DNA of 64,000 nt from an uncultured Bacteroidales bacterium (lineage in GTDB: Bacteria > Bacillota_I > Bacilli_A > ML615J-28 > CAG-698). The translations under genes and the position numbers were made by a program. The stretch lies in assembly GCA_964407835.1 (NCBI GenBank), contig CAYOXB010000001.1, positions 45,174-109,173 on the forward strand, given 5' to 3'. Below, piece after piece: positions 4,245-57,082 of the stretch. The stretch's first letter is position 1, and each line of letters opens with the position of its first letter. Under the pieces are notes generated by a model that saw only the letters and a program-made list of their open reading frames with translations, searched no databases and was not told where the DNA came from.

Positions 4245-6134
4245 TTAGTTTGCAGGGATTGTTGAATAGTAGTTTTTAGTTTGAACAAATCCTGTAGAAG
4301 GATTTTCAACTGTAATTAAGAAACTTATTTGAGTTGTAGTCGCAGGTAACTTAACTATTCTACCATTATTATTAACAAGATCCGGATTATTTGAAACTAG
4401 AGTTAAGTTATAATCGCCTAGGAATTTTTCTACTAAATATTCTGCTTCAATCATATTTAATAAATTAGGGATTAATCCATTCATTCTCATAGTTTGAGGA
4501 CAGTTTTTACCACTATAGTTTTGGTGGAAAGTAACTCTTTCTAAACCTAAATCAAATTCATGTAATAAGTGTGAAGTTAATTTAGAAGTATAATGCCATG
4601 TTAAATACAAGTCACTGCCTTTATCTACACATGTTTCCATACTAACACTATTATAGTTACCACCATGATTAGAAATTAGTTTATAAGTAGTGTTATAGTA
4701 ACTATTATTCATATACCAATTTCCGTTTGTGCCAATTTCTAAGTAAATCCCATAGTCATTAATAGCAGAGGCTTTTAATATATTATTATTCGAATCTTTA
4801 GGTGCTTGAATAATAGTTTTTGCACCATTAAGTGTATAGAAACCACTAGCATCAATTCCAAGAGTTGGTCTAATTTTACTTGTTGCTTTAACGCCTGTAT
4901 CGTTTAAACCGAATTTTCTTGAACCATCTCCAGCATGCCATGTAGGTCTGTTAGTTTCAACTTGTTGATAAACACCTTCTTGCCCTACACTAAAATGCCA
5001 AGATACTTGTCCGCCACCACTTCCATTATACATATAAGTAGCGTGCATTGCTGCACCTGCATTAACATTTGTATTACCAGTATCATGAATAGTAATAAAT
5101 TTTACATCTTCCTTATTCATTACATTTGTAATAGCAGGTAAGTTTGGCGAGTTTTCAGGTGTCATTCTTCTAACAAAAGGATATTCTCCGAAGAAATAGT
5201 TAACTACGCTTCCCAATACTTTTGTTGTGTAGTTTGTCCCACCATATGCAGTTACGTTTTGAACGATTGGTTTATCAACAACTAAATGGTCGATTAAATC
5301 CATAACATCCCAATAGAATTCTACTTTTAGAGTTCCTTTTTTAGTTCCATCTTGAATTGATTTAGCAGTAAATGTAACTTCGCCATAACTAACTATAGTT
5401 ACAAATCCATCTTCACCAATAGCAGCAATACTGTCATCGCTTGTTTCCCATACTACGTTTTGATCCGCAGCTTTTGGAAGAACAGTTGCTGATAGTTTAT
5501 AATTGGCTGTTGTTTTGATTCTAGTGTCATTAATATTTGCACTAATATTTACTTCACTAACAGCAGCTTCAGTAACTTCAATAGTAAATGCTTTGCTAGT
5601 CCCATTTTCAAGTGAATGCACTTCAAATTGGGCAACCCCAGGTTTAACACCAGTAACTAGTCCTGTTTGGCTAACTTTAGCAATACTAGCAGTTAATGCA
5701 ACCCACATAACACCGTGTCCAGTATCTGCTTTATCAACAGCTGTAAGTTGAATTTCTTCACCAGCAATAACAGTAGTCGGGCCAGTCACTGTTAATTGAG
5801 TAGCTGGATCAATTTCCTCTTCATTTACTTTTACATTAATAGTTATTTTTAGTTTAGGATACTCTTCAACAGTAACCGTGATTTTAGCACTACCAGATTT
5901 TAATGCTGTAATTTTTCCGTCTTCGTCTACGCAGACAACGTCTTCACAATCAGATTCAAATTTAAATTTTACATTGTTTTCTGTACCATTTACTTTAGGT
6001 AGAATAACTTCCTCATCACCTATTTCTAAGGTTAGGTTAGATTTAGAAGCGCTTAAAGTAACGTCTTCAGTATTGTTACAACCTACTAATAGAAAACCGA
6101 TTAAAACAAAAAGTAAGATAATACTTTTTTTCAT
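4245..6134 (-). CDS. Lipoprotein with Big_2 (bacterial Ig-like) domain and amidase_2-type N-acetylmuramoyl-L-alanine amidase domain (paralog 2)
   Basis: Lipobox 'LLVGCN'; Big_2-like 'GSAKITVTV'; amidase_2 signature 'IHDTG...SWHFSVG...WHAGDG...ETCVDKGS...HQNYSGKNCPQ'. Confidence 0.7.
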   Translation of the reverse strand: MKKSIILLFVLIGFLLVGCNNTEDVTLSASKSNLTLEIGDEEVILPKVNGTENNVKFKFESDCEDVVCVDEDGKITALKSGSAKITVTVEEYPKLKITINVKVNEEEIDPATQLTVTGPTTVIAGEEIQLTAVDKADTGHGVMWVALTASIAKVSQTGLVTGVKPGVAQFEVHSLENGTSKAFTIEVTEAAVSEVNISANINDTRIKTTANYKLSATVLPKAADQNVVWETSDDSIAAIGEDGFVTIVSYGEVTFTAKSIQDGTKKGTLKVEFYWDVMDLIDHLVVDKPIVQNVTAYGGTNYTTKVLGSVVNYFFGEYPFVRRMTPENSPNLPAITNVMNKEDVKFITIHDTGNTNVNAGAAMHATYMYNGSGGGQVSWHFSVGQEGVYQQVETNRPTWHAGDGSRKFGLNDTGVKATSKIRPTLGIDASGFYTLNGAKTIIQAPKDSNNNILKASAINDYGIYLEIGTNGNWYMNNSYYNTTYKLISNHGGNYNSVSMETCVDKGSDLYLTWHYTSKLTSHLLHEFDLGLERVTFHQNYSGKNCPQTMRMNGLIPNLLNMIEAEYLVEKFLGDYNLTLVSNNPDLVNNNGRIVKLPATTTQISFLITVENPSTGFVQTKNYYSTIPAN

Positions 6135-6245: not shown

Positions 6246-8129
6246 TTAAATTTTAATTGTTGAATAGTAGTATTTAGTTGATGTAACACCTGTTGTAGGA
6301 TGAGTTACTTCTACAAGGAAACTTACTTGAGTAGTAGCATCTGGTAATTTAATAATCTTACCATGATTATCTACATATTCAGGATTGTTTGATGTAAGAG
6401 TGAATGTATAATCACCAAAGAATTTAGCAATTAAATATTCAGCTTCAACTAATTTTCTAAAATCCCCAACTAGGCCATTTCTTCTCATTGTTTGTGGGCA
6501 GTTTTTACCACTAAAACTATGGTGGAATTGTTGTCTATCTAAACCTAGGTTATTAGCTAATAATACTTCAGAAACAATTTTAGCTGTATAGTGCCATGTT
6601 AAGAATACATCTGAGCCAGCGTTAACCATAGTTTCAATACCAATACTGTTTCTATTTCCACCTTGGTTAGAAATGTTTGGTCCTTGAGTTGAATAATAAG
6701 AATTATTTATAAACCAATTTCCATTTGTACCGACTTGCATAGCAATTCCATAATCATTAATTGCTGCAGCTGTTAAGATTGAACCATCAGTATGTCTTGG
6801 AGCTTCAACAATTGTTTTTACACCATTAAGTGTATAGAAACCAGTAGAATCAATTCCAAGCGTAGGTTTAATTTTACTTACAGCTTTAACGCCTGTATCG
6901 TTCATCCCATATACTCTTGATCCGTCTGAAGCATGATATGATATTTCATTTAGTGGAATTTGTAGGTAAACACCATCATTACCAATACTGTAATGCCATG
7001 ATGTTCCACCGCCACCATTATATACATAGTTTGCATGTGCAGAAGCAGTTGCTCCTGGTGCAGCTGAACCAGTGTCATGAACAGTAACGAATTCAGTTGA
7101 TGGTTGTAAAATTCCAGGTCTGTTTTCGTTTGTGCTTGGAGCTATCTTTTCATAGTAAGGATATGTTCCAAAATAATAACTAGTTACACTACCTTTAATT
7201 ACTTGAGGATATTTTTCATATCCTGCTTCATAACCATAGTAGAATGCATTTTTATCAACAACAGGATTTTCAATTATAATGTAATCCATTAAGTCCATAA
7301 CGTCCCAATGGAATTCTACTGTAAGAGTAGCTTTCTTTGTTCCATCTTGAATAGATTTAGCAGTAAATGTAACTTCACCATAAGTAGAGATTGTTACAAA
7401 TCCATCTTCACTAATTAAAGCTATGCTATCATCGCTTGTTTCCCATACTACATTTTGATCTGCAGCTTTTGGAAGAACAGTAGCTGATAGTTTATAACTT
7501 GCAGTTGTTTTAATTTTTGCATCACCTATATTAGCACTAATACTAACTTCACTAACTGGAGCTTCAGTAACTTCAATAGAAAAAGCTTTGCTAGTTCCAT
7601 TTTCAAGTGAGTGAACTTCAAATTGAGCAGTTCCAGGTTTTACACCTGTAACTAAACCAGTTTGACTTATTTTTGCAATTCCAGCAGTTAAAGCAACCCA
7701 CATAACACCATGTCCTTGGTCTGCTTTATCAACAGCTGTAAGTTGAATTTCTTCGCCTGCAACAACAGTAGTTGGGCCAGATACTGTTAATTGAGTAGAA
7801 GGATCAATTTCCTCTTCATTAACAGTTACATTAACAGTTGCTTTTAGTTTAGAAAATTCTTCAACAGTAACGGTAATTTTTGCACTACCAGATCCTACAG
7901 CTTTTACTTTCCCTTCTGCATCAACTGTTGCAACTTCTAAATTATCTGATTCAAAATTAAATTTGACATCTTTTTCTGTACCTTCTATTTTAGGTGTGAT
8001 AACTTTTTCTTCCCCAATTTCTAGTGTTACACTAGTTGGTGAAGCGCTTAAAGTAACGTCCTCAGTTTTATTACAACCTACTAATAGAAAACCGATTAAA
8101 ACAAAAAGTAAGATAATACTTTTTTTCAT
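6246..8129 (-). CDS. Lipoprotein with Big_2 domain and amidase_2 domain (paralog 1)
   Basis: First 20 aa identical to the 4245-6134 product. Residues about 100-280 are nearly identical, while the C-terminal amidase_2 half is diverged ('VHDTG...SWHYSIG...IGIETMVNAGSD...HHSFSGKNCPQ'). Confidence 0.7.
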   Translation of the reverse strand: MKKSIILLFVLIGFLLVGCNKTEDVTLSASPTSVTLEIGEEKVITPKIEGTEKDVKFNFESDNLEVATVDAEGKVKAVGSGSAKITVTVEEFSKLKATVNVTVNEEEIDPSTQLTVSGPTTVVAGEEIQLTAVDKADQGHGVMWVALTAGIAKISQTGLVTGVKPGTAQFEVHSLENGTSKAFSIEVTEAPVSEVSISANIGDAKIKTTASYKLSATVLPKAADQNVVWETSDDSIALISEDGFVTISTYGEVTFTAKSIQDGTKKATLTVEFHWDVMDLMDYIIIENPVVDKNAFYYGYEAGYEKYPQVIKGSVTSYYFGTYPYYEKIAPSTNENRPGILQPSTEFVTVHDTGSAAPGATASAHANYVYNGGGGTSWHYSIGNDGVYLQIPLNEISYHASDGSRVYGMNDTGVKAVSKIKPTLGIDSTGFYTLNGVKTIVEAPRHTDGSILTAAAINDYGIAMQVGTNGNWFINNSYYSTQGPNISNQGGNRNSIGIETMVNAGSDVFLTWHYTAKIVSEVLLANNLGLDRQQFHHSFSGKNCPQTMRRNGLVGDFRKLVEAEYLIAKFFGDYTFTLTSNNPEYVDNHGKIIKLPDATTQVSFLVEVTHPTTGVTSTKYYYSTIKI

Positions 8130-15096: not shown

Positions 15097-15107
15097 AATT
15101 ATTGTAA

Positions 15108-15272
15108 ATCTTCAGGGCAGGGTGAGATTCCCGACCGGCGGTAAAGTCCGCGAGCTTGAAAGAGCATGAATTGGTGAAACTCCAATACCGATAGTATAGT
15201 CTAGATGAAAGAAGAGCTATATTTAATATGCTTTTTTTTGCTCGCGAAGTTTTTTCGCGAGTTTTATTTTTT
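15108..15272 (+). promoter_or_regulatory. FMN riboswitch (RFN element) with terminator expression platform
   Basis: Matches the RFN consensus: 'cagggcagggtgagattcccgaccggcggtaaagtccgcgagc...ggtgaaactcc...ccgatagtatagtctagatg'. It is followed by the hairpin 'ctcgcgaagttttttcgcgag' plus TTTTATTTTTT (15241-15271). Confidence 0.85.
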
Positions 15273-15291
15273 AAAAAGAAAGAGGGTTATT

Positions 15292-16185
15292 ATGTTTTTA
15301 AGTAGTTTTTGGCAAGATCATTGGTTAGAAATTAGTGTTTCTACAGTGTTTGTGCTAGCAAGTATTGCTTTACTTGTTGCACTGGTTATTAATATCGGAA
15401 AGCAAGAAACAAGCAAAAAAGTCTATGTAATAGGAAGTTTTATATTTGCACTTGTATTGTTCAGTGTTAACTTCTTTATTTATAAAGATTATAAGAATGC
15501 ATTGAGTCAAGACCCGACTACTGAATTTCCACTTGCAAATGTTTTTGCATATAATGCACTTATAATTATTGCATTTTCTCTAGTTGGTTACTTAGTTATC
15601 TCAAGGAGGAATAAAGAAGAAGAAAAAATGACAGTTGCTAATGTTGCAATGTTAAGTTTATTAGTAGCACTATCAACAGTATTGATGTTGTTTGGAATAC
15701 CAATACTACCTGGATTTACATTTTTAAAAGTTGAAATTAGTGCTTTAATTTATTTCTTAGTTTATTTGTGGTTTGGAATAAAACCAACAACGGTAGTCAT
15801 TTTTCTTACAAATATAATTCATGCTATTATGCCATCATTTGGTGTTCAAATTGTACCTGGACTTGATCAAATGGTAAATGTTATAGCAGTATTTACATTT
15901 TTGTTTCCTTCATTTATTGCATTTAGGAAATTAGAAGAAGGAGAAGTTCCACCGTTTAAATCTGTTTTAGTTTGTACTATAATAGGCGTTGTGTTTACTT
16001 CAGTCTTTATGCTTTTATATAATTACTTTATAAATTTACCACTTATTTATGGTATGAATATGTCATTTGAGGATGTGCTAAAAATATTTGGGTTATTTAA
16101 TATTATAAAATGGAGTACTGTTAGTGCTGCCATAGTATTACTATACAAAAAACTATATGAATTGAAGAATCAATTAGTAAGATAA
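15292..16185 (+). CDS. Membrane protein, putative riboflavin transporter (ECF S-component/RibU-like C-terminal half)
   Basis: RBS AAGAAAGAGGG before ATG 15292. The protein is multi-TM. The ORF-track start at 15205 lies inside the riboswitch and is rejected. Confidence 0.6.
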   Translation: MFLSSFWQDHWLEISVSTVFVLASIALLVALVINIGKQETSKKVYVIGSFIFALVLFSVNFFIYKDYKNALSQDPTTEFPLANVFAYNALIIIAFSLVGYLVISRRNKEEEKMTVANVAMLSLLVALSTVLMLFGIPILPGFTFLKVEISALIYFLVYLWFGIKPTTVVIFLTNIIHAIMPSFGVQIVPGLDQMVNVIAVFTFLFPSFIAFRKLEEGEVPPFKSVLVCTIIGVVFTSVFMLLYNYFINLPLIYGMNMSFEDVLKIFGLFNIIKWSTVSAAIVLLYKKLYELKNQLVR

Positions 16186-22967: not shown

Positions 22968-23029
22968 TCAATAAGATTGACAAGGAACAAAAGAAGTTGT
23001 ATAATAATTAATATAAAACTGTGAAGTGG

Positions 23030-23236
23030 ACAAGATTAATAAAATTTTTATTTATAGCGAAAGTATGATAGTGAAAGATACTTAATAAAACTTATTAGTT
23101 ACTACCGTGGAGTTGAACTCGAAAGAGATTCCGTTATTCAGCGTTAATGAAATTGAGCGCAGTAGTGTTTTTAAACACTATTGAATTAAGGTGGTACCAC
23201 GTTATAATACGTCCTTTTTAGAAGGGCGTTTTTATT
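23030..23236 (+). promoter_or_regulatory. T-box leader (Thr) upstream of thrS
   Basis: Conserved T-box 'aattaaggtggtaccacg' (23184-23201), then the terminator cgtcc/tttttagaa/gggcg plus a T-run (about 23208-23236). Stem I region with ACU/ACC candidates ('ttagttactaccgtgg'). Confidence 0.8.
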
Positions 23237-23251
23237 TTTTAGGAGGATAAT

Positions 23252-25162
23252 ATGAAAATTAGTTTTTTAGATGGAAGTGTGAGTGAATATAAAGATGGCC
23301 TAAGTGCTATGGATATTGCTAAAAGCATATCTCCATCTCTAGCAAAGAAATCAATATTTGCTAAAGTAAACGGTGAAGATTATGATTTGAACAGACCAAT
23401 ACTAGCTGATGCAACACTTGAATTAATTACAAAGGAGAGAGTTGAAGCTTTAGAAGCTTTGAATCATTCTTGTAGTCATTTACTTGCAAGTGCTGTTAAG
23501 AAATTATATCCGAAGGCACAATTTGGAGTTGGTCCAGCAATTGAAGAAGGATTCTATTATGACATTAATCCTGGGGATAATGTTAAGATAACTGAAGCTG
23601 ATCTAGTTAAAATAGAAGATGAGATGAAGAAAATTGCTAGTAAAAATTATGATTTTATTCGTGAAGAATTATCAAAAGAAGAAGCTTTGAAGAAGTTTTC
23701 TTATGATAAATACAAACAAGAAATTATAAATGAACTTGAGGATGGTGTAGTTATTTCTACATACACTCATGGGGATTTTTCTGATCTTTGTAGAGGACCG
23801 CATTTAGATAATACTAAGCATTTAAAATATTTTAAATTACTTAATATTAGTGGTGCCTATTGGAGGGGAGATTCTAAAAATGAGCAGCTTCAAAGAATAT
23901 ATGGAACATGCTTTTTTAATCAAGAAGATTTGAATAAGCACTTAGAAGTATTAAAAGAAAGAGCTGAGAGAGATCATCGTAAACTTGGGCGTGAGCTTGA
24001 ATTATTCATGTTAAGCGAATATGGTCCTGGCTTTCCTTTCTGGTTACCTAAGGGTATGATTCTTCGTAGAGCACTAGAAGAATACTGGTTCAAGGTTCAC
24101 ACTAGAGAAAATTATCAGTTCATTCAAACTCCAATTATGCTTAATAAAGACTTATGGGAGATATCAGGACACTGGTTAAACTATAAAGATAATATGTATA
24201 TTTCAGAAATTGACAAGCATGAATTTGCGATTAAACCGATGAATTGTCCTGGAGGATTGTTGGTATATAAACACTCCCTACACTCATATAAAGACCTTCC
24301 TCTTAGAGTTGGTGAACTAGGATTAGTTCATAGACATGAAGCAAGTGGGGCTTTAAATGGCTTATTTAGAGTAAGAAACTTCACTCAAGATGATGCTCAT
24401 ATCTATATGAGAGAAGATCAAATTATCGATGAAGTAGGAAATTTAATTAAATTATTTGATGAAATTTATTCAGTTTTTGGTTTGAAATATCACATTGAAT
24501 TATCTACAAGGCCTGAAGAAAAGTATATTGGGTCTATCGAAGTTTGGGATAAATCAGAAAAAGCACTAGCAAAAGCATGCGAAGCAGTAGGAAAAAATTA
24601 CAAAGTAAATCCTGGTGATGGAGCGTTTTATGGACCTAAATTAGACTTCAAATTACGCGATTCAATGAATAGAGTATGGCAATGTGGAACTATTCAGCTA
24701 GATATGAATTTACCAGAAAGATTTGATATATTCTATATTGGTGAAAATGGTGAGAAGGTTAGACCAGTTATGCTACATAGAGCTATTTTTGGTTCGCTTG
24801 AAAGATTTATTGGAATTTTAATTGAACATTATGGTGGAGCTTTTCCAACATGGCTTGCCCCTGTACAAGTAAAACTAATTCCGGTTAATAATACTTATCA
24901 TTTAGAGTATGTAAATAAAGTGAAAGATATTTTATTAGATGCTAATATTAGAGTAGAAGTAGATTCTAGAGAAGAAAAATTAGGCTATAAAATTAGAGAA
25001 GCACAAACTAAGAAAATACCTTATCAATTAATTATTGGTGATAATGAGGTTAAAGAAGAAGTTTTAACTTATCGTGCTTATGGTAAGCAAGAATCAGTAA
25101 CTTTATCTATTCTCGAATTTGTGGAAAAAATTCAAAAAGAAATTAAAAACTTAGGTCAATAG
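23252..25162 (+). CDS. thrS: Threonine--tRNA ligase
   Basis: TGS domain, editing domain with 'HSCSHLLA', and class II core. Confidence 0.97.
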   Translation: MKISFLDGSVSEYKDGLSAMDIAKSISPSLAKKSIFAKVNGEDYDLNRPILADATLELITKERVEALEALNHSCSHLLASAVKKLYPKAQFGVGPAIEEGFYYDINPGDNVKITEADLVKIEDEMKKIASKNYDFIREELSKEEALKKFSYDKYKQEIINELEDGVVISTYTHGDFSDLCRGPHLDNTKHLKYFKLLNISGAYWRGDSKNEQLQRIYGTCFFNQEDLNKHLEVLKERAERDHRKLGRELELFMLSEYGPGFPFWLPKGMILRRALEEYWFKVHTRENYQFIQTPIMLNKDLWEISGHWLNYKDNMYISEIDKHEFAIKPMNCPGGLLVYKHSLHSYKDLPLRVGELGLVHRHEASGALNGLFRVRNFTQDDAHIYMREDQIIDEVGNLIKLFDEIYSVFGLKYHIELSTRPEEKYIGSIEVWDKSEKALAKACEAVGKNYKVNPGDGAFYGPKLDFKLRDSMNRVWQCGTIQLDMNLPERFDIFYIGENGEKVRPVMLHRAIFGSLERFIGILIEHYGGAFPTWLAPVQVKLIPVNNTYHLEYVNKVKDILLDANIRVEVDSREEKLGYKIREAQTKKIPYQLIIGDNEVKEEVLTYRAYGKQESVTLSILEFVEKIQKEIKNLGQ

Positions 25163-46984: not shown

Positions 46985-47254
46985 ATGTACCATTCCTTCT
47001 ATAAAACTATTGAATATATTATAACATAAAAAGGCTGAATAAAAAAGCACAAAATATACAATTTTTTTTGTTTTTTTATTGCTAATTTAAAAAAAATATT
47101 CTTAGTTAATTGTTGATTAGGAAAAATTTAACAAGCAAAAACACAATAATAAAGGATTAAAATTATCTTGCATTTTTTAAAAAAATAATATTTGTTAAAT
47201 GGTGGTTCGTTTGGTATAATATAAATACCTATGGAAATAAAAAGGGTGAAAAAT

Positions 47255-50200
47255 ATGGTAAGAGCAGAATACAAAAAATTAAATATTTCTGTTAGAGAAA
47301 GTCATTTAATTGATATTTATTCCGATACTTCTAAATATTTAGAACTTGGAACCATTCATTTCGCTATTTTGAAAAAGTTATTAAAGTATGAACAAATTAA
47401 CTTTAAAGAAATAGCGTTTTTACCCATTCAAAATTTTGGTATAGGAAAAAGCACAATTAATAATGAAAATCTTAAATCTACTATGCCCTATTATTATTTC
47501 AATAATGTTAACCAAAAGAATAAACCTTATCAAGTTTTTTTAACTCATGGATTAATTAGGTATCGTGATTTACAAGATAAAGAAATATTCTCCCCACTGA
47601 TTTTAATACCTGTTGAAATTTTATTTGATGGTGATGAAGTATATATTCAAATGATTTCTGAACCGATTGAGAACAAACCTTTATTAGAGTATTTGGATCG
47701 TGCTAAGAAAATACTTATTCCCAGTGTAGATAAACTTGATACTCTTGGAAATATTGAAAAGTATTTTATGAATATTCTTAAATATAGTGAATTCAATTTC
47801 GAGTTTGAGAACTATATGACTTATGCATATGTCCAAAAACCAGAGATTATTATTAATCAAAATAAGTTTAATTTAAGTAGACAATATGATGACTTCTTAT
47901 ATGAAAATTTATTCAGTGAAGACCATATAGTATTTTATTCAAAAAAACATAATAGAAAACAAAGAAGAGCGCTGATGCAAGCTATTGAAGGCGAATCATT
48001 TGTTATTGCTGGTAGACTTGGAACTGGTAAAACAACAGTAATGAAAGACATTGCTGTGAATGCTATAAGTAGTGGCAAAAGAGTATTATATGTATCTAAT
48101 GTAGATAATACACTTAACGAAGTAAATGAATTTATGAAAGGAAAAGGACTTGGTTATTATGTTACTAATTTCACAAAACCTTTTTCCACATTTTTAAAAT
48201 CTGATGAACTTAAATTTGTTCAAGGAGATTTAACTAGAGCAAGTAATTTTGATAGTTTATTATCAAACTATAAATATATAAATGATTATCAACTAGCAAT
48301 GACAGGAAGAGTACTTGATCATCGCTTTATTGATGTAGTTAATGAACTTATAAACTTAAGTAGAGTCGATAAAGAAAAAATAGAAATAGATAATTTATCC
48401 GATATATACAAACACGAGTATTTAGAAATAGTCGACTCTGTAAAGACAATCCAACAATCTATTGGAAATTTTGATAATTTTAAAGACAGTATTTGGAAAG
48501 ACATTCCAATTATTAATGATATTAAATATCCTAATCAAGTAATGTTTTTGATTCACCAAGTTTATAATGGCTTTGATGAGTTAAAAAAATATAAAGATAG
48601 TTTAATTGAAAATTATAAGTTTGTGGAAATATCTAATTATGCTTTTATGAAAAACATAATTAATAATATAACGCAATTGCCTGTACAAGATGTTCCAAAG
48701 TCTTGGGCTGAACAAGATAATTATGAAAAAGCCAAAACTGAATATCATAATTTAAAGAATTTAATTTTCACATTACAAGAACTTGAATATGATCTTGATA
48801 TAAGGTTTGAGAATTTAGATAAGTTTGAAATTAAAAAAGAGCTAGAGATTTTATATGGTAGTTTCTTCACTAGCGATAATCTTGATAAAATTAATAAAAT
48901 TATAGATGATCGTTTAGAAATTGTTGTTACTTTGAATAAAATAACAATGCAAATCGATATTTTTAATAAAGCAATTCATAAAATTAAAAATGCAATAGAT
49001 TATAATTTTGAACTATCAAACGATGTGCTTAATGAAGTACTTGCAATGTCTCAAACATTATTAGATACAAAAGCAAATTCAAAATTTATTAAAGCAATTG
49101 TGAGAGGTGAATTTGAAAACACTTATAATATTGCAAATAAGTATTTTGATAAGTATAACGATATTAATAACCAAATAGAAAACTTATTTTTAGATCTGGA
49201 ACTTCCTAATATTGAAGAATTAGATATAAAGAATAAAATACAACTTATTATTGATTTTGAAAGAGGATTGAAATTAAAACGACCATATCGTCAAATTGTT
49301 TCAAAGTTAAAAGCAAAAGATATTGAAAACTATAAATCAGTATTAATTAATATTAAAAAATCTCAACAATTAGAAATTGAAAAAGAAGAAGTAGCTGATA
49401 AATTCATAGCACTTTTAGATTGTGAACTAAAAAAAGAATACTTAGATGATTTTAAAAATCTTTATGATTATGTAGAAAATATTGAAGATGCTCATATGAA
49501 GGCAAAGATTTTAAAATCCTTAAGAAGGATTTCTAATTTACATGAAAATCAAACTAAAAATTTCTCTAGAGTTTTAAGTTATTTTATTAAATCACATCAA
49601 AAGATAATAGAGATGTATAAAGAGTTATTGATCCATGAATTTGTCGATGAAAAAAATGAATTTGATGAGATATTAAAAGATATCTATTCAATCAATTCTT
49701 ATATTAAGAAATTGAATGAATCAAATGATACTTTATATTCAATGAAAAAAATAAGCCGTGATGAATATATCAAAGCTCAAGATTATTATTATCTAGATGA
49801 AACATATAATAAAATAGCGGAAGTTAAAGAGGAACTAAAGTTCAATAAAGAATTCCCATATTTGTTTGGTTCGATATATAAAAGACAGGCTACAGATTTA
49901 GCGTATCTTGCTAGAGTTATTCAAGCATATAGACTATATGTAAGTTCATTTGAATCGTATTCTTCTGCGGTGAATAGTTTAAATCCAGAAGTTTATTCAG
50001 GTATAACAAATGTATTAAATAAATCATCTGTTGCTATTGATGATTTAAACGAAGTGTTTAAGCAGTATTTTAAGATTTTCAAAAATTCTGTTTCACAACT
50101 ATACTATGGATTGTTTGATGATAATTTAAGTAATTTATTAATTCAAATGGAAAACAGAGAAGATTTAATTACATATTTGAAAATCACAGATAATTTACAA

Positions 50201-51559
50201 GTTCTTGAAAAATATCATTTATATAAACTCATTGAACATATAGTTAGTATGGAAAGAACAACAACACTATTAACTGATTTTAAATTTACATACTTTTCTA
50301 CATTGAATGATATATATCTAAAGGATAATCAATATTTAAGAGATTATAAAACATTTGAACTTGCTCTTAAAACTACAGTCGAAGTAGAAGAAGAGATTAT
50401 GAGAGCAATAGAAGAAAGAATAGTTAGAAAGATTATTAGACGTAGTGTAAATAAATACAATATGTTTGGGTTTAAACATTTAGATTATAATGCTTATCTT
50501 AAAAAAACAAATAGAATAAAGCACTTAGTTCTTACAAATACTCAAATCTTAAACAATTTTATTGACCCTAATTTATTTGACTTAATATTAATTGATGATG
50601 CCCATATATTCTCAGCTAGTGAGTATGTATATGCACTGGAAGGAAAACAAGTAATAGTTAGTGGTGAGTTGCAATTCCAAGAAGCAGCACTCAACAACTT
50701 GATTTCAAGAATAAGTATGGGTAAGAGTATAGAACTAAATTATAGATACGATATAATACCTAAAGGCTTTAAAGACTTCACACGAAGATTGAAAGCTCCA
50801 ATTTACAATCAATACTATGAAAACTATGGTGTTGAGATTATTGAAAAGGGTATTTATAAATATGTAGCTAATCTTTTTACAATTAATAAAAATTGTAGTG
50901 TTAACTTATTTATAGCTGATGCTGAAGTTCAAAGACAAGCATATGATAAAATAGCTAATTTCTTACTTACAAATAATTTTAAAGAAGAAGAAATTATTGA
51001 GATTTATAAAAGACAACTAAATATAGTTGATTTAAAAAAGGGTTATTTAATTAATGCTAATTATAATGTTTTGTTTATTCAAGATTATTATGAACTTGAT
51101 ACTGAGTATTTGGTTGTTAATATGATCGATAACCTTATCTTAACTAGAAAGAAATTAATCATTTATGATAATAAAGATTTTCTTTCCACAAAATCTAATG
51201 CAATATTCTTAACAGAACTCAATAAGATAATTAATTCAAGAGATGTATTTAAAAAGCCTGAACCTATAGGCACCATTGAAAAACTAATTAGTGCTCTTGA
51301 AGCTGAAGATATAACATGCTTTGCTTCTGAGCTTGGGACATTTATAATAAAAGTAGGTTATAGCTTATACGGTATTACTGTTTATTGGGATTCTAGAAAA
51401 ACAAATTATGATATATTAAATGAATTTAGAGATATTCATTCTCTAAAAGATCCTAGGATCAAGAAAAACATTATTGTCTGGTCAATGGAGTTGATTGAGA
51501 ACTTTGATGGTGTTATTCAAAGAATACTAAAAGAGGTAGCGCATGATTCGGGGAAGTAA
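47255..51559 (+). CDS. Giant Upf1-like SF1 helicase/NTPase (1434 aa from 'MVRAEY'; DUF4011-helicase-like architecture) with an insertion of about 850 aa between motifs I and II
   Basis: Q-motif/Walker A 'QRRALMQAIEGESFVIAGRLGTGKTT' (nt 48011-48037). Motif II/III-like 'LILIDDAHIFSASEYVYALEGKQVIVSGELQ' (nt 50582-). Motif IV-like 'LNYRYDII'. Motif VI-like 'ILTRKKLIIY'. RBS AAAGGGTG before ATG 47255. Confidence 0.6.
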   Translation: MVRAEYKKLNISVRESHLIDIYSDTSKYLELGTIHFAILKKLLKYEQINFKEIAFLPIQNFGIGKSTINNENLKSTMPYYYFNNVNQKNKPYQVFLTHGLIRYRDLQDKEIFSPLILIPVEILFDGDEVYIQMISEPIENKPLLEYLDRAKKILIPSVDKLDTLGNIEKYFMNILKYSEFNFEFENYMTYAYVQKPEIIINQNKFNLSRQYDDFLYENLFSEDHIVFYSKKHNRKQRRALMQAIEGESFVIAGRLGTGKTTVMKDIAVNAISSGKRVLYVSNVDNTLNEVNEFMKGKGLGYYVTNFTKPFSTFLKSDELKFVQGDLTRASNFDSLLSNYKYINDYQLAMTGRVLDHRFIDVVNELINLSRVDKEKIEIDNLSDIYKHEYLEIVDSVKTIQQSIGNFDNFKDSIWKDIPIINDIKYPNQVMFLIHQVYNGFDELKKYKDSLIENYKFVEISNYAFMKNIINNITQLPVQDVPKSWAEQDNYEKAKTEYHNLKNLIFTLQELEYDLDIRFENLDKFEIKKELEILYGSFFTSDNLDKINKIIDDRLEIVVTLNKITMQIDIFNKAIHKIKNAIDYNFELSNDVLNEVLAMSQTLLDTKANSKFIKAIVRGEFENTYNIANKYFDKYNDINNQIENLFLDLELPNIEELDIKNKIQLIIDFERGLKLKRPYRQIVSKLKAKDIENYKSVLINIKKSQQLEIEKEEVADKFIALLDCELKKEYLDDFKNLYDYVENIEDAHMKAKILKSLRRISNLHENQTKNFSRVLSYFIKSHQKIIEMYKELLIHEFVDEKNEFDEILKDIYSINSYIKKLNESNDTLYSMKKISRDEYIKAQDYYYLDETYNKIAEVKEELKFNKEFPYLFGSIYKRQATDLAYLARVIQAYRLYVSSFESYSSAVNSLNPEVYSGITNVLNKSSVAIDDLNEVFKQYFKIFKNSVSQLYYGLFDDNLSNLLIQMENREDLITYLKITDNLQVLEKYHLYKLIEHIVSMERTTTLLTDFKFTYFSTLNDIYLKDNQYLRDYKTFELALKTTVEVEEEIMRAIEERIVRKIIRRSVNKYNMFGFKHLDYNAYLKKTNRIKHLVLTNTQILNNFIDPNLFDLILIDDAHIFSASEYVYALEGKQVIVSGELQFQEAALNNLISRISMGKSIELNYRYDIIPKGFKDFTRRLKAPIYNQYYENYGVEIIEKGIYKYVANLFTINKNCSVNLFIADAEVQRQAYDKIANFLLTNNFKEEEIIEIYKRQLNIVDLKKGYLINANYNVLFIQDYYELDTEYLVVNMIDNLILTRKKLIIYDNKDFLSTKSNAIFLTELNKIINSRDVFKKPEPIGTIEKLISALEAEDITCFASELGTFIIKVGYSLYGITVYWDSRKTNYDILNEFRDIHSLKDPRIKKNIIVWSMELIENFDGVIQRILKEVAHDSGK

Positions 51560-52118
51560 GAGAATATTTAATGATTTTGTGAGAACGGTTAAACAAGACT
51601 CACATCGTTACTACTATATTAAAAGTAATTTATTAAAAATGCGCGAAGAAAACATTGATATAAATACTCAAATATATGGTGGTCAAACATTACTCCATGT
51701 TGCTTTAAAACTAAAAAACATTAGATTATTTAAATTGTTTTTAAAGTATGGAGTAAATCCGGATATTGCCAATGACTTAGGAGAAGCTCCTATTCATAAG
51801 GCCATTTTAAAAAACGAGTTTAATTTCTTAAAAGCCCTTGTAGGAAATGGCTGTGATATTAATCTTGGTGCTGAACTAGAACAAACTCCTCTTCATTTAG
51901 CTGTAATTACAGGTAATGTAGATATTGTTAAGTATTTAGTTGATAATAATGCTAGAATTTTAATTCAAGATGAAAATTATAATTATCCATTAGATTACGC
52001 AATTGATGAAGGAGATTGTGATATAATTAAGTACTTCTTAACTAAACAGGAAGTAGATGAAACAAGAAAAGAAAAAATTAATCAATTGATGGAAAAAGCA
52101 GGTGAAAAAGAATGTTGA
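51543..52118 (+). CDS. Ankyrin-repeat protein (about 4 ANK repeats), translationally coupled to the helicase
   Basis: 'GQTLLHVALK...GVNPDIAND', 'GEAPIHKAILKNEFNFLKALVGNGCDINL' and 'TPLHLAVITGNVDIVKYLVDNNA'. RBS AAAGAGGTA. Its ATG overlaps the helicase 3' end by 17 nt. Confidence 0.75.
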   Translation: MIRGSKRIFNDFVRTVKQDSHRYYYIKSNLLKMREENIDINTQIYGGQTLLHVALKLKNIRLFKLFLKYGVNPDIANDLGEAPIHKAILKNEFNFLKALVGNGCDINLGAELEQTPLHLAVITGNVDIVKYLVDNNARILIQDENYNYPLDYAIDEGDCDIIKYFLTKQEVDETRKEKINQLMEKAGEKEC

Positions 52119-52918
52119 AATTTCAAGAAATTTTGGATATGATTCGCTCTTATACTGGTGAATATTCTGTAATAGGGTTTGTTCGTTTAGGAATTGATGT
52201 ACTATTATTACTAGCAGTGTTATTTATCGTCTATAAGATAATGAAAAAAAGAACACATGGTGTTCGAGTTTTTCTAGTTGTACTTGGAGCTATTGCTTTA
52301 TATGCAGTAAGCTTTGTGTTCCAATTTAAAATGTTTTTAAAGGTATTGGATTATCTTTTCTTTTGGAGTTTAGGAGCTTTGTTAATTGTATATGCTGGTG
52401 AAATTAGACATTCGCTTGATTATTTCTTTGCACCTACAAAGGTGTCAGCTGCTTATTCAAACAAAGAAGAAAAACAAGAAATTATTAGTACATTAGTTTC
52501 AACTGCAGAGTTCTTATCTAAACGTCGTTTGGGTGCTTTAATAACAGTTGAAAGAGAAGACAATCTTAACTCTTATATTGATAAAGCAATTTTCATCAAT
52601 GGAAATGTTTCTCAAGAGTTACTAACTACAATTTTTACTCCAGGTACTGCAGCTCATGACGGTGCTGTAATTATTCGAAAAAGCAAAATAATGTGTGCAG
52701 CTGCCTATTTCCCGTCGACTGATAGATATGATGTTCCAAAATCACTTGGAACAAGACATAGAGCAGCGATTGGAATTAGTGAGAAGACAGATTCACTTAC
52801 TATCGTTGTAAGTGAAGAAACTGGCTTTATTTCTATTGCAATTGATGGTAATATTAACATTAATCAAACAGTTGAAAAACTAGAAGAAATGTTAGATAGA
52901 TATTTAATCAATAAATAA
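52112..52918 (+). CDS. cdaA: Diadenylate cyclase CdaA (c-di-AMP synthase)
   Basis: Three N-terminal TM segments plus DAC domain 'TPGTAAHDGAVIIR...LGTRHRAAIGISEKTDSLTIVVSEETG'. Its start overlaps the ANK stop (ATGTTGA). Confidence 0.9.
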   Translation: MLKFQEILDMIRSYTGEYSVIGFVRLGIDVLLLLAVLFIVYKIMKKRTHGVRVFLVVLGAIALYAVSFVFQFKMFLKVLDYLFFWSLGALLIVYAGEIRHSLDYFFAPTKVSAAYSNKEEKQEIISTLVSTAEFLSKRRLGALITVEREDNLNSYIDKAIFINGNVSQELLTTIFTPGTAAHDGAVIIRKSKIMCAAAYFPSTDRYDVPKSLGTRHRAAIGISEKTDSLTIVVSEETGFISIAIDGNININQTVEKLEEMLDRYLINK

Positions 52919-52939
52919 CACAAGGTCAATACAAAGTAA

Positions 52940-52967
52940 TTGAAAAATATTTAATTTATGATATAAT
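52940..52967 (+). promoter_or_regulatory. Promoter for the PAS/GGDEF-like gene
   Basis: -35 TTGAAA, a 16-nt spacer, extended -10 TGATATAAT. Confidence 0.5.
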
Positions 52968-53051
52968 GTGAATATATAGAAGGCTAAAAGGATAGAAAGA
53001 ATTTGGTTTAATTACCAAACTAAAAATTAGAAAAGATTAAAGGTGGATTAT

Positions 53052-54554
53052 ATGATTCCAGAATTAGTAGAATTAGTAAAAGAATATTATTATTTATTGT
53101 TTGTTGCTGGTCTAATTGTTATGTTTTTCTTAGTTTTAAGTATTTTACTTAATAAGAAAAAAGCAGCAATTGTTCCAGGAAGCCTTTTTGCTGTATATGC
53201 TATCCTATTTACAGTTTCTGTCTTCTATAAAGAAAAATTAACAGGTAGAATTATTTTAGCTTTTGGCATATATGTATTCCTTGAAGGAGTCTTTACCTTA
53301 GTTATGGCCACAATTTCATATCTTGAAAAACGTAAGTTTAATTTATTGTTTCAATTATCATCTTCGATTGATAGTGCGATATTAGTTTATTTAAATGAAA
53401 AAGGTGAAATAGTATTTTTCACAAAAGAATTCTTAAATATGTTTGATGTTAACAATGCAAAAGACTTTGAACAAATAGTAAAATATGTTCATTTAGGCGA
53501 AAGACAAATGTCATATAAGGCGTTTTTAAAAATCCTAACTTATGAAAAAGAAGAAGACTATGCACTCATTATTGATTTATTTAATACTAAAGAAAAAAGA
53601 TTGCATGTATCTAAAAGAAAGATTATCAATAATGGTAAATTACTTGGTTATGTATTAATCAATAAAAAGGATCAAGTATTCCAAGAAGATACACCAACAA
53701 CATATCAAGTTGATGCAATTAACTTAGTTAATGAAGCACTTGCTATTTATGAAAGTGATAATAATAAACTACTAATTAATAATAAAATGCAAAACTTACT
53801 CGGTGTAGATAGTGTAAATAGTTTAGATGAATATATTTATGCTGAAGATAAAAAGCAAATTGAAAAAAGAGCAAGAGCAGAAGGCGAAAAATCTAAGATT
53901 TACTATCGCATTAATGCTCAAAACAATCGTGTATGGGTTTTAGAGACTTGTACAATTGCTAGGGGCAAATTAACTAAAGTAGTTAGAGAAACAGACTTTA
54001 AAAACTTAATTTATAATTTTAGAGATTATTCTAAAATGGTTCAAGAATTAGAGCATAATATAGCAATGAGTACAAATTTTGCTTTAGTCTTTGTAACTCT
54101 ACATACACTTACTCAAATAAAAGAAAAAATTGGTAAAGATGCTTCAATGGTTCTTGCTACGCAATTCTTTATTAATTTAAATAATGAAATTAAAGATTTA
54201 AAAGTATTTGAAATAGGTTATTATAAATTTGCATTCTTTATTAAAAATGAAGCTGCATATAAAAATATTTTAAGAGATCTTAATAATAATGCTTCTAGAC
54301 TGCAAAAGACAAAAATTATATTTAATGATTTAGCATTTGAAATCAAGACTTATTTAGGGCTTGTGGAAAGCAAAAATGTTCTTAATCCAACGCCTGAATT
54401 AATGATTGAAGCTGCAGAAGGTGCATTAGAATTAGCTTCTAATAAAAACTATCCGAAAGACTTTAGCATTTATATTTCTAAAGTTAAAGAATTAGAAGGC
54501 GAAGAGAGAGAAATAGACTTAAGTGATGATTTTCTACAAAGGATTATGAAGTAA
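53052..54554 (+). CDS. Membrane-anchored sensor-like protein: 3 TM segments, PAS-like region(s), C-terminal degenerate GGDEF-like domain
   Basis: Hydrophobic N-terminus. PAS-like 'SSIDSAILVYLNEKGEIVFFTKEFLNMFDV'. Cyclase-fold-like 'ALVFVTLHTLTQIKEKIGKDASMVLATQFF...VFEIGYYKFAFFI', where YYKF replaces GGDEF. No YbbR repeats are visible, so it does not look like CdaR. Confidence 0.45.
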   Translation: MIPELVELVKEYYYLLFVAGLIVMFFLVLSILLNKKKAAIVPGSLFAVYAILFTVSVFYKEKLTGRIILAFGIYVFLEGVFTLVMATISYLEKRKFNLLFQLSSSIDSAILVYLNEKGEIVFFTKEFLNMFDVNNAKDFEQIVKYVHLGERQMSYKAFLKILTYEKEEDYALIIDLFNTKEKRLHVSKRKIINNGKLLGYVLINKKDQVFQEDTPTTYQVDAINLVNEALAIYESDNNKLLINNKMQNLLGVDSVNSLDEYIYAEDKKQIEKRARAEGEKSKIYYRINAQNNRVWVLETCTIARGKLTKVVRETDFKNLIYNFRDYSKMVQELEHNIAMSTNFALVFVTLHTLTQIKEKIGKDASMVLATQFFINLNNEIKDLKVFEIGYYKFAFFIKNEAAYKNILRDLNNNASRLQKTKIIFNDLAFEIKTYLGLVESKNVLNPTPELMIEAAEGALELASNKNYPKDFSIYISKVKELEGEEREIDLSDDFLQRIMK

Positions 54555-54571
54555 TTTAAGTTTTCAAATCG

Positions 54572-54600
54572 GGACTAATTAATTAGTCCCTTTATTTTTT
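54572..54600 (+). terminator. Terminator
   Basis: gggactaatt/aattagtccc followed by TTTATTTTTT. Confidence 0.8.
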
Positions 54601-54613
54601 AAAGAGGTATGAT

Positions 54614-55762
54614 ATGTTTGATGTTATTTTATTAATTGCTGGAAAAGGCAAGAGAACAAAATTAGATTATAATAAAACTCTATACTTGATTAATGATAAA
54701 CCTATATTTAAGTATTCACTTGATATCTTTTTAAAGATGAAAGAATTGAATAAGGTTGTTTTAGTCATTGATAAAGAAGATGAAGATATTGTAAATGAAT
54801 ATATTAAAGATATAAATTCTAATAAAATTGAAATAGTATATGGTGGACTTGAAAGACAAGATAGTGTAAAAAATGGAATCGATAAATGTTCAAGCGATGT
54901 TGTTTTAATTCACGATGGTGCAAGAGCATATATAGAAGAAGGACAAGTTCAAAGTGTTTATGATAATGCTAGAAGATATAATGCTTCTGCTTTAGCAGTA
55001 AAAACTACGGATACTATAAGAGAATTAAAAAAAGGCTCTTCAAACATTGTTGATCGCAATTTACTTTGGAATATGCAAACGCCACAAGGTGTTAATTTAC
55101 AGATGTTTAAAGAAGCTCTTAAAAAAGCATATGAAGATAATTATTATGGAACAGATGATTTAAACTTACTTGAAAAATATTTTGATATTGTACCTAAGCT
55201 TGTAGAAGGAAGTAAAAAGAATCTAAAATTCACAACAATTGATGATTTAGATTATTTAAAATTTATATTAGGAGAGCAAAAGATGGAATATAGAATAGGT
55301 CATTCTAATGATACTCATCGTTTAGAGGCGGGAAGAAAGTTAATCTTAGGTGGAGTTGAGATAGACTATCATTTAGGGCTAATTGGTCATTCTGATGCTG
55401 ATTGTATTTATCATGTTGTAAGCGAAGCTATTATAGGTGCTCTAGGACTTGGTGATATTGGAAGTCATTTTCCGGATAATGATAAAAAATACAAAGATCA
55501 AGACTCTAGTTATTTTGTTGTTGAAGCAAGGAAGTTAATGGAAAAGGAATTATATATTATCAATAATTTAGACTTGATTGTTTATGCAGAGAATGTTTAT
55601 TTAAACCCTCATATAAATACAATAAGAGATAATATTGCGAAGCTTTTGATCTGTGATAAATCAAGAATTAATATAAAAGCAACAAGAAGAGAAAAGCTAG
55701 GGTTTGTTGGTAGAGAAGAAGGAATATCAGCTGAAGCAGTAGTTTTGCTGAAAAAGAAGTAA
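54614..55762 (+). CDS. ispDF: Bifunctional MEP cytidylyltransferase / MEcPP synthase (IspDF)
   Basis: IspD N-half 'ILLIAGKGKR'. IspF C-half 'RIGHSNDTHRL...GHSDADCIYHVVSEAIIGALGLGDIGSHFPD'. Confidence 0.9.
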   Translation: MFDVILLIAGKGKRTKLDYNKTLYLINDKPIFKYSLDIFLKMKELNKVVLVIDKEDEDIVNEYIKDINSNKIEIVYGGLERQDSVKNGIDKCSSDVVLIHDGARAYIEEGQVQSVYDNARRYNASALAVKTTDTIRELKKGSSNIVDRNLLWNMQTPQGVNLQMFKEALKKAYEDNYYGTDDLNLLEKYFDIVPKLVEGSKKNLKFTTIDDLDYLKFILGEQKMEYRIGHSNDTHRLEAGRKLILGGVEIDYHLGLIGHSDADCIYHVVSEAIIGALGLGDIGSHFPDNDKKYKDQDSSYFVVEARKLMEKELYIINNLDLIVYAENVYLNPHINTIRDNIAKLLICDKSRINIKATRREKLGFVGREEGISAEAVVLLKKK

Positions 55763-55803
55763 ATATAAAATCATTAAGTAAAACGTTTACATTTCACTTT
55801 ATC

Positions 55804-55833
55804 TTGATATGGTAGTTTTCTAAATGATATAAT
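55804..55833 (+). promoter_or_regulatory. Promoter of the leader/ABC transporter operon
   Basis: -35 TTGATA, an 18-nt spacer, extended -10 TGATATAAT. Confidence 0.5.
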
Positions 55834-55856
55834 GATAAAAACTAAAGGAGTAAATT

Positions 55857-55922
55857 ATGACTAATATAATTATTAACAATTATTTTTACTTTTACTTTTT
55901 TCCAAGAGGATGTCATGTTTAG
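55857..55922 (+). CDS. Candidate leader peptide MTNIIINNYFYFYFFPRGCHV (21 codons) with 7 consecutive Tyr/Phe codons
   Basis: Strong RBS AAAGGAG 6 nt upstream. The codon run is tat ttt tac ttt tac ttt ttt. Lies in a 333-nt 5' region ahead of the ABC transporter. Confidence 0.5.
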   Translation: MTNIIINNYFYFYFFPRGCHV

Positions 55923-56043
55923 AACGCTCTTGGCTTTTTCTGGTAAGAAGTAAGTCATAATTTAGTTAGTGTTATTACATGATATCTATTTTAAACAAAG
56001 GTTAAAATAGTAAAAGTAATAACAACAACAAATGAAAAAACAG

Positions 56044-56080
56044 ATTGTGTTATTACTAAGGTATAGCACAATTTTTTTAT
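56044..56080 (+). terminator. Attenuator terminator upstream of the ABC substrate-binding gene
   Basis: Hairpin gattgtg/.../cacaat plus TTTTTTTAT. Upstream segments 'gtgttattac' (55969-55978) and 'gtaataacaac' (56016-56026) can pair alternatively with its 5' arm. Confidence 0.45.
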
Positions 56081-56095
56081 TATAAGGAGGTTATT

Positions 56096-57082
56096 ATGAA
56101 TATTAAAAAAATTATTATCTTATTATTAGTTTTACCACTTGCAATTTTGGTTGCTGCTTGTGAACAAGACGATCGAATTCAAATTGGTATTTTACAACTC
56201 ATAGAGCATAATGCTCTAACAGCTGCAAAAGATGGTTTCATTGATGGATTAGCTGAAGCTGGATATGTTGATGGCGAAAACATCACTATTACTCTTTTAA
56301 ATCCTCAAGGTGATGATGGTGTAATGGCTCACAGCAGTAAAAAACTTGTTAGAAAATCAGATTTGATTCTGGCAATTGCAACGCCTGCAGCACTATCTGT
56401 TGTGAACGAAGCTGAAGATCAAAAGAAAAATGTTCCTATTTTATTTACTGCAGTAACAGATCCAGTTAGTGCTGGTTTGATTGCTAGTAATGAAAAACCA
56501 GGTGGAAATGTTACAGGAACAAACGACATGAACTCTGTAGAGTTACAAATAGGCTTAATTAAGGAACTACTTCCTGAAGCAACAAAAATAGGTATTTTAT
56601 ATACATCAAAAGAACCTAACTCTAAAATCCAAGCAGATATGGCAGTAGAACATGCAGAAAGCTTAGGATTAGAAGTTGAAGTTAAAACAATTGCTGATGT
56701 AAACGAATTACAACTTGCTGCAAGTTTACTTGCAAGTTCTGTTGATGCAGTATATATCCCAACGGATAATACTATTGCAGCAGATATGGGAACAATTAAC
56801 AATGTTGTACTTGATAAAAAGGTTCCGTTTATAGTTGGAGAAACTAATATGCTTTATGCTGGTGGAAGCGCTACTTACGGTATTGATTATTATAGATTAG
56901 GTAAACTTACTGCTGAGATGGCTGTTCAAATCTTGAAAGATGGTAAAAATCCTAAAGATATACCATGTGTAGGTTTAACTGATTTCGCATTAGTTATTAA
57001 TAAAACACAACTTGATGCGATTAACCTTGTTATTCCTTCTGTTCTTTTAGATAAAGCAGATGAAATAGTAGATGATAAATAA
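56096..57082 (+). CDS. ABC transporter substrate-binding lipoprotein, COG2984/PF04392 family
   Basis: Lipobox 'LVAAC'; 'IQIGILQLIEHNAL...AIATPAA' is family-typical. Confidence 0.8.
   Translation: MNIKKIIILLLVLPLAILVAACEQDDRIQIGILQLIEHNALTAAKDGFIDGLAEAGYVDGENITITLLNPQGDDGVMAHSSKKLVRKSDLILAIATPAALSVVNEAEDQKKNVPILFTAVTDPVSAGLIASNEKPGGNVTGTNDMNSVELQIGLIKELLPEATKIGILYTSKEPNSKIQADMAVEHAESLGLEVEVKTIADVNELQLAASLLASSVDAVYIPTDNTIAADMGTINNVVLDKKVPFIVGETNMLYAGGSATYGIDYYRLGKLTAEMAVQILKDGKNPKDIPCVGLTDFALVINKTQLDAINLVIPSVLLDKADEIVDDK

Follow-up and report, generated by a model that had tools for sequence, protein, structure and literature searches.

The cdaA locus

We analysed a 64,000-nucleotide stretch of contig CAYOXB010000001.1 (assembly GCA_964407835.1), called the window below, and in it the gene directly 3' of cdaA, which encodes the membrane diadenylate cyclase (DAC) of cyclic di-AMP (c-di-AMP) signalling. 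This target gene is an open reading frame (ORF) on the + strand, running from an ATG at 53052 to a TAA at 54554 and encoding 500 amino acids. A sequence-only reading of the stretch had placed the gene correctly but had given the protein 501 residues, one too many because the stop codon was counted. The in-frame GTG at 53043 falls within the ribosome-binding site AAGGTGG (53040–53046, + strand), which was read from the sequence 5 nt ahead of the ATG, and all homologues of the target begin with MI(Q/E)K; for these two reasons the ATG at 53052 is taken as the true start. The G+C content of the region is about 26–30%, and every gene there is on the + strand.

The upstream gene (52112–52918, +; 268 amino acids) matched TIGR00159 at 1.5e-60 (204.7 bits, cutoff 188.8) and the DAC domain PF02457 at 9.3e-39, while the CdaA_N match was weak (0.0056). 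On these profile matches it is assigned as a genuine cdaA, as had been supposed from the sequence alone. Its start is overlapped by 7 nt by the end of a gene for an ankyrin-repeat (Ank) protein of 191 amino acids (51543–52118, +; Ank_2 5.5e-23), which is in turn overlapped by 17 nt by the end of a 1442-residue P-loop/helicase-like ORF (47231–51559, +). With its gene translationally coupled to cdaA, the Ank protein is another candidate for a partner of CdaA in the cytoplasm. The next gene 3' of the target is a fused ispD/ispF of 382 amino acids (54614–55762, +).

The target gene has expression signals of its own, and both the promoter and the terminator suggested by the sequence-only reading were found. 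A sigma-70-type promoter, TTGAAA-16 nt-(TG)aTATAAT (52940–52967, +), matches at 11/12 positions and carries a TG extension. It is the top-scoring sigma-70-like site in the 5.2 kb that were scanned (51000–56200) and is located in the 133-nt gap 3' of cdaA, past the cdaA stop codon. Among the relatives, whose loci are numbered L001 and so on, TTGAAA...TGnTATAAT also follows the cdaA stop in L001, L004, L009 and L010, with variants in L013 and L018, and terminator-like hairpins are present 3' of cdaA in L010, L016 and L018. Because the promoter lies beyond the cdaA stop, the target and cdaA need not be co-transcribed. On its other side, an intrinsic terminator, GGGACTAATTAATTAGTCCC followed by a T-run (54571–54600, +; 54571–54590 without the T-run), stands ahead of ispDF. 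The target, preceded in some relatives by the methylglyoxal synthase gene mgsA, is predicted to be a transcription unit separate from Ank-cdaA. A regulatory RNA in the 84-nt leader of the target was considered and rejected, as the leader had a fold z-score of +0.56 and matched nothing in Rfam at E ≤ 1.

Domain architecture of the target

The target was searched alone against Pfam and NCBIfam with no significant result, the top match, PAS_3 at E 0.046, being below threshold. Its domains are recognisable only through a family profile and a structure model. The model was built with AlphaFold2 (AF2) from 8 homologues and had a mean predicted local distance difference test score (pLDDT) of 76. The family profile, made from 70 aligned members, was compared with PDB sequences and matched the GGDEF domain 3mtk_A at 2.7e-9 and the PAS domain of DosP at 7e-6; a profile from the 8 close homologues matched none at E ≤ 10. 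When the 70 members were searched individually, Pfam GGDEF was found in 36 (best 1.1e-15) and PAS_3 in 6 (best 1.1e-11).

The order of parts is three transmembrane (TM) helices, two PAS domains, a degenerate GGDEF domain and an acidic tail. The TM helices, at about residues 14–33, 38–59 and 67–91 (53091–53324, +), were placed from the AF2 helices at 13–34, 36–58 and 65–102 and from hydrophobic stretches in the sequence. Short basic loops (NKKK and EKRK) connect them, and an extracytoplasmic domain is absent. The topology is probably N-out/C-in with a cytoplasmic soluble part, since PAS and GGDEF are cytoplasmic domain types. PAS-like domain 1 (residues 108–205; 53373–53666, +) corresponds to an AF2 alpha/beta module at 110–204, and the DosP match of the family profile is taken as evidence for it. 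PAS domain 2, of the PAS_3 type (residues 229–314; 53736–53993, +), corresponds to a second alpha/beta module at 231–313. The target shows the five-stranded antiparallel sheet with flanking helices of the PAS fold. A mostly helical linker (residues 315–339; 53994–54068, +), with AF2 helices at 316–319 and 326–338, joins PAS2 to the degenerate GGDEF domain (residues 340–476; 54069–54479, +), for which AF2 gave an alpha/beta domain at 344–474 with the fold of GGDEF (PF00990). After a disordered spacer at residues 479–485 (pLDDT <50), the protein ends in an acidic tail (residues 486–500; 54507–54551, +) with the core I-D-L-S-D-D-F-L and an AF2 helix at 492–499.

Across the family, conservation is highest in PAS2, the GGDEF domain and the C-terminal tail and lowest in the TM segment and PAS1. 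Residues D266, R286, W295 and E298 of PAS2 are conserved family-wide. PAS1 is missing from members of about 400 residues, which align only from about residue 205. The acidic tail is kept by most of the 70 members and lost in the most distant subclade; D489, L490, S491 and F494 were invariant in the 16 members compared.

Loss of the GGDEF active site

The register of the GGDEF domain was set with hhalign, by aligning the family profile to that of a canonical cyclase (92% probability, E 5.6e-7). A shallow alignment had been uninformative in the same comparison, and the deeper one resolved the register. The canonical segment F-I-D-L-D-G-F-K-A-V-N-D-T-L-G-H-D-A-G-D aligns with F-V-T-L-H-T-L-T-Q-I-K-E-K-I-G-K-D-A-S-M in the target, and the canonical R-V-G-G-D-E-F aligns with E-I-G-Y-Y-K-F, so that GYYKF (residues 389–393; 54216–54230, +) occupies the position of the GG(D/E)EF signature. 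The metal-binding Asp has become Thr, the guanine-binding Asn and Asp have become Lys and Met, and the Arg before the motif has become Glu. At the position of the canonical RxxD I-site the target has a 2-residue deletion, and no in-register RxxD, five residues ahead of the GGDEF signature, was found in the target or its relatives.

The motif is degenerate throughout the family, where it reads G/S-x-x-E-Y/F and its first Asp is kept by almost no member. The target's own subclade has decayed further, with Lys or Thr for the motif Glu and Met or Leu for the guanine-binding Asp. The GGDEF domain of the target is predicted to be catalytically dead, every residue for metal, GTP or inhibitory c-di-GMP having been lost. 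The sequence-only reading had described three N-terminal TM helices, one or two PAS-like segments and a cyclase-like C-terminal domain with a non-catalytic GYYKF at the signature position. All of this was borne out, with the number of PAS domains now two, and the profile and structure comparisons found both the PAS and the GGDEF folds and not YbbR.

A family encoded beside cdaA

An exhaustive profile search for relatives of the target, with a threshold of E ≤ 0.001, gave 108 cluster representatives, mostly 500–540 residues long; the 70 aligned members come from this set. When the 70-member alignment was used in a word-indexed search, nothing came up beyond the 8 close homologues and unrelated PAS/GGDEF proteins, and a locus search of the genome collection with the close-homologue alignment returned L008 only, which encodes the same proteins as L001. 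All named matches to the family or to its CdaA were metagenome bins, called 'Bacilli bacterium' or 'Acholeplasmataceae bacterium'. Family members are annotated in databases as 'hypothetical protein' and once as 'GGDEF domain-containing protein'. Full-text searches of the literature found no paper connecting cdaA with a neighbouring GGDEF gene and nothing on c-di-AMP signalling in Acholeplasma, and in the c-di-AMP literature 'degenerate GGDEF' was mentioned solely for GdpP. From these searches the family appears to be undescribed and confined to uncultured Acholeplasmataceae-like Bacilli.

Neighbourhoods were retrieved for 12 diverged members, 24–52% identical to the target. In all 11 members with visible upstream DNA a DAC gene lies upstream, either adjoining or with a single small gene in between; the DAC in L016 was identified by translating a truncated upstream ORF. 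In the twelfth member, L015, the contig stops 39 nt ahead of mgsA, so the position of cdaA is not visible. The reciprocal search, started from CdaA, gave 7 metagenome loci, and the order DAC-mgsA-family gene was found in 5/5 close relatives. The other two loci are L026, described below, and L027, which has a CdaA 34% identical to that of the window and a canonical cdaA-cdaR pair.

Three contexts occur 5' of cdaA. Most loci have a P-loop/helicase-like protein of about 1400 residues followed by Ank and DAC, a trio that recurs in L001, L004, L009–L011 and L013. Ank-cdaA also recurs in L018, where the gene before Ank is a cut 419-residue ORF with no Pfam match. The identity of Ank to the window copy declines in step with that of CdaA, from 77% to 48%. 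The second context is response regulator-histidine kinase-DAC (L017), and the third is SpoU methylase-unknown protein-DAC (L020). The linkage to cdaA persists in L017, where CdaA is 37% identical to the window copy.

On the 3' side of cdaA, mgsA (its catalytic motifs were recognised by eye) lies between cdaA and the family gene in 7 of the 12 members, at 5635–5988 in L001, 5294–5650 in L004 and 5644–6000 in L009, against the gap of 52919–53051 in the window. It is missing in the window, L016, L017, L018 and L020, and cdaA is upstream in all five. In L017 (2295–2468) and L020 (3569–3754) cdaA and the family gene are separated by an ORF of 57–61 residues, whose product is basic at the N-terminus and has a single TM helix at the C-terminal end; the L017 copy had a sub-threshold match to DUF2659 (E 0.0012). 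These two members, which belong to the most distant subclade, also lack the acidic tail. Downstream of the family gene, ispD/ispF are found in most loci, the distant L017 included. Of all features of the family neighbourhood, the place 3' of cdaA persists most.

Two further observations concern the neighbouring genes. A tblastn search of the window for a remnant of mgsA found none (best E about 1); the organism of the window has lost mgsA cleanly, and relatives carry it behind the same promoter. The ispD and ispF genes are fused in the window and in L015 and are separate neighbours in L001, L004, L009, L010 and L013.

Other features of the window

Away from the cdaA locus, two tandem paralogous lipoprotein-like genes on the − strand (4245–6134 and 6246–8129) encode proteins of 629 and 627 amino acids. 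Each combines three Big_2 domains with Amidase_2 (N-acetylmuramoyl-L-alanine amidase), which is notable for an Acholeplasma-like genome. A flavin mononucleotide (FMN) riboswitch (15104–15220, +; 108.5 bits) lies directly 5' of the gene for the S-component of an energy-coupling factor (ECF) transporter (15205–16185). A T-box leader (23012–23219, +; 103.2 bits) precedes a 636-residue ORF (23252–25162), which was read by eye as a putative threonyl-tRNA synthetase.

Possible function

On the basis of gene context, we tentatively favour the view that the target is a non-enzymatic membrane sensor or adaptor tied to c-di-AMP homeostasis. The PAS domains would respond to a signal in the cytoplasm, for example a metabolite or the redox state, and the dead GGDEF domain and the tail would relay it by protein–protein contact to the c-di-AMP machinery, with a possible influence on c-di-AMP levels. 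The most plausible contact would be the three-TM cyclase CdaA, which is in the same membrane. The target might then perform, in this lineage, the regulatory job that CdaR and GlmM have in other Firmicutes. The persistence of the linkage through three upstream contexts and down to 37% CdaA identity counts for such a role. The idea that the protein is a regulator or receptor in c-di-AMP signalling was already part of the sequence-only reading, and the co-occurrence with cdaA in all 11 assessable cases, with varying neighbours, lends it real but indirect support.

Several observations weigh against a sensor or adaptor of this kind. The functional evidence is gene context in one lineage, in which the wider synteny is conserved too; as ispD/ispF also persist, inherited gene order could explain part of the cdaA linkage. 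The target has its own promoter, and with hairpins after cdaA in three relatives co-transcription is not required. The tightest coupling of the family gene is to mgsA, since from the mgsA stop to the family-gene start there are 0–17 nt and the two genes overlap in L015. The family outpaces CdaA in divergence: in L001 the family protein is 52% identical and CdaA 77%, and in L013 the values are 25% and 52%. The TM segment, the expected contact surface for CdaA, is among the least conserved regions of the family. The sole exception to the linkage that was found is L026 (181–6782; CdaA 52% identical), which has the same giant helicase-like gene upstream, a DcuC-type transporter 3' of cdaA, and neither an Ank gene nor a family member beside cdaA. 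Finally, the view of the genome is limited to 64 kb, so cdaR could sit elsewhere: within the window, YbbR was not found in the ten ORFs scanned for it (mostly ORFs that could not be named by eye), and the remaining ORFs were read by eye as housekeeping genes, with cdaR, glmM and gdpP not among them.

Many of these points are also expected if the target merely neighbours cdaA and works with MgsA, with central carbon metabolism or with some unlinked partner, the order cdaA / mgsA-X / ispDF (X being the family gene) having simply been inherited and having no tie to c-di-AMP. We regard this alternative as possible but doubtful. The conserved promoter, the terminator-like hairpins, the translational coupling to mgsA in 7/12 members and the cdaA of L026 that lacks an adjoining family gene are all consistent with it. 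So is the persistence of ispD/ispF, which is nearly as great as that of cdaA even though no function connects them. In B. subtilis the corresponding order is disA-yacL-ispD-ispF, with a DAC gene two genes ahead of ispDF, and we know of no functional link behind the persistence of that DAC gene near ispDF. DAC-membrane protein-ispDF may be an old syntenic block, and adjacency is to be taken with caution here as a guide to function. However, mgsA is gone in 5/12 members and cdaA has been kept in all five, and the linkage to cdaA has endured three contexts and a fall to 37% CdaA identity, a divergence over which gene order rarely survives unselected.

A different function for the dead domain is rather improbable, namely that the degenerate GGDEF domain binds ATP or c-di-AMP and that the target is a nucleotide receptor, which would serve in feedback or as an effector instead of sensing through its PAS domains. 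The degenerate GGDEF domain of GdpP has weak ATPase activity (PMC10243994), the GGDEF domain and the tail are among the best-conserved parts of the family, and in many members the position of the guanine-binding Asp is still acidic and the fourth position of the motif is still Glu. Both of these residues are lost in the subclade of the window, though, and by-eye reading of the alignment indicates that the phosphate-binding Lys/Arg in the helix that follows the last strand is probably replaced too (ALELASNKNY). The known c-di-AMP-binding folds were not found in the target.

It is far less probable still that the target is an active diguanylate cyclase or an I-site receptor for c-di-GMP. The GGDEF fold is present, and it was the Joint Genome Institute (JGI) that named one homologue a 'GGDEF domain-containing protein', but the GYYKF signature, the four substitutions at the metal, guanine and preceding Arg positions and the deletion of the I-site all speak against it. 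Least credible of all is a CdaR too divergent to recognise, which the sequence-only reading had left as its alternative: location 3' of cdaA is the sole point in its favour, YbbR (PF07949) was not found in the target at E ≤ 1 in the Pfam search whereas the same model reached 3e-14 on the real CdaR encoded after the canonical cdaA of L027, and the target has a PAS-PAS-GGDEF fold with three TM helices and cytoplasmic domains.

A wider proposal builds on the sensor/adaptor reading and is itself unlikely. In wall-poor Acholeplasma-like Bacilli, the extracellular control of CdaA by CdaR and GlmM may have been replaced by this cytoplasm-sensing TM-PAS-PAS-dead-GGDEF family, which would bind CdaA or a stand-alone DHH phosphodiesterase (a 'split GdpP') and set c-di-AMP according to a metabolic cue. 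Triose-phosphate overflow could be that cue, because mgsA is coupled to the family gene. Such proteins would be c-di-AMP regulators of a new class, in which the GGDEF fold has been put to a new use. The control of CdaA activity is an unsolved problem of the c-di-AMP field, and a lineage that has cdaA but a PAS/dead-GGDEF membrane protein in the place of cdaR is a natural experiment. If CdaA and the target interact, CdaA could come under cytoplasmic sensory control, and the TM-PAS-degenerate-GGDEF module would be one that can be moved between c-di-AMP enzymes as their regulator. Three points limit the value of the case: the organisms are uncultured, its basis is gene context, and the target need not be co-transcribed with cdaA.

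Comparison with known systems

The target is not CdaR. CdaR has one TM helix and external YbbR repeats, forming 3–4 domains (PMC10243994), and it contacts CdaA through TM helices (PMC10243994; PMC5508000). The two are alike in that each is a membrane protein able to meet CdaA and, in the window, is encoded directly 3' of cdaA. They differ in fold, since the target has three TM helices and a cytoplasmic PAS-PAS-GGDEF part that is unrelated to the extracellular YbbR domains, and apparently in operon membership, since cdaR stands in a cdaA-cdaR-glmM operon whereas the target has its own promoter and is followed by ispDF instead of glmM. The 'CdaR slot' of the sequence-only reading is right as to position 3' of cdaA; it is doubtful as an operon position, for although the target adjoins cdaA in the window the promoter intervenes, mgsA is usually in between and coupled to the family gene, and the family gene is missing from that place in L026.

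PAS/degenerate-GGDEF proteins of c-di-GMP signalling usually bear an EAL domain or an I-site, both of which are absent from the target; the gene that accompanies it in the genome encodes a cyclase for c-di-AMP. With respect to gene order, DAC-membrane protein-ispD-ispF in the window mirrors the B. subtilis block, a CdaA-type cyclase replacing DisA.

GdpP (YybT) consists of TM, PAS and degenerate GGDEF domains that modulate an attached c-di-AMP phosphodiesterase (PMC10243994; PMC5508000), and its GGDEF domain is active as an ATPase in spite of being degenerate (PMC10243994). The target shares with this published architecture the order of TM anchor, PAS and degenerate, non-cyclase GGDEF. GdpP acts in c-di-AMP homeostasis, and the target is encoded beside the cyclase gene. 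The N-terminus of GdpP is a TM domain with a single PAS domain (PMC5508000), in place of which three TM helices are followed by two PAS domains in the target. At the other end, GdpP continues into a C-terminal DHH/DHHA1 phosphodiesterase, whereas the target ends 24 residues past its GGDEF domain and had no DHH/DHHA1 match in Pfam or NCBIfam. The likeness is one of architecture: NCBIfam gave no relevant match between the target and GdpP at E ≤ 1, Pfam gave nothing specific, and no GdpP chain was among the PDB matches of the family profile at E ≤ 1. By this comparison, the closest known design to the target would be a GdpP reduced to its regulatory half, the phosphodiesterase being absent.

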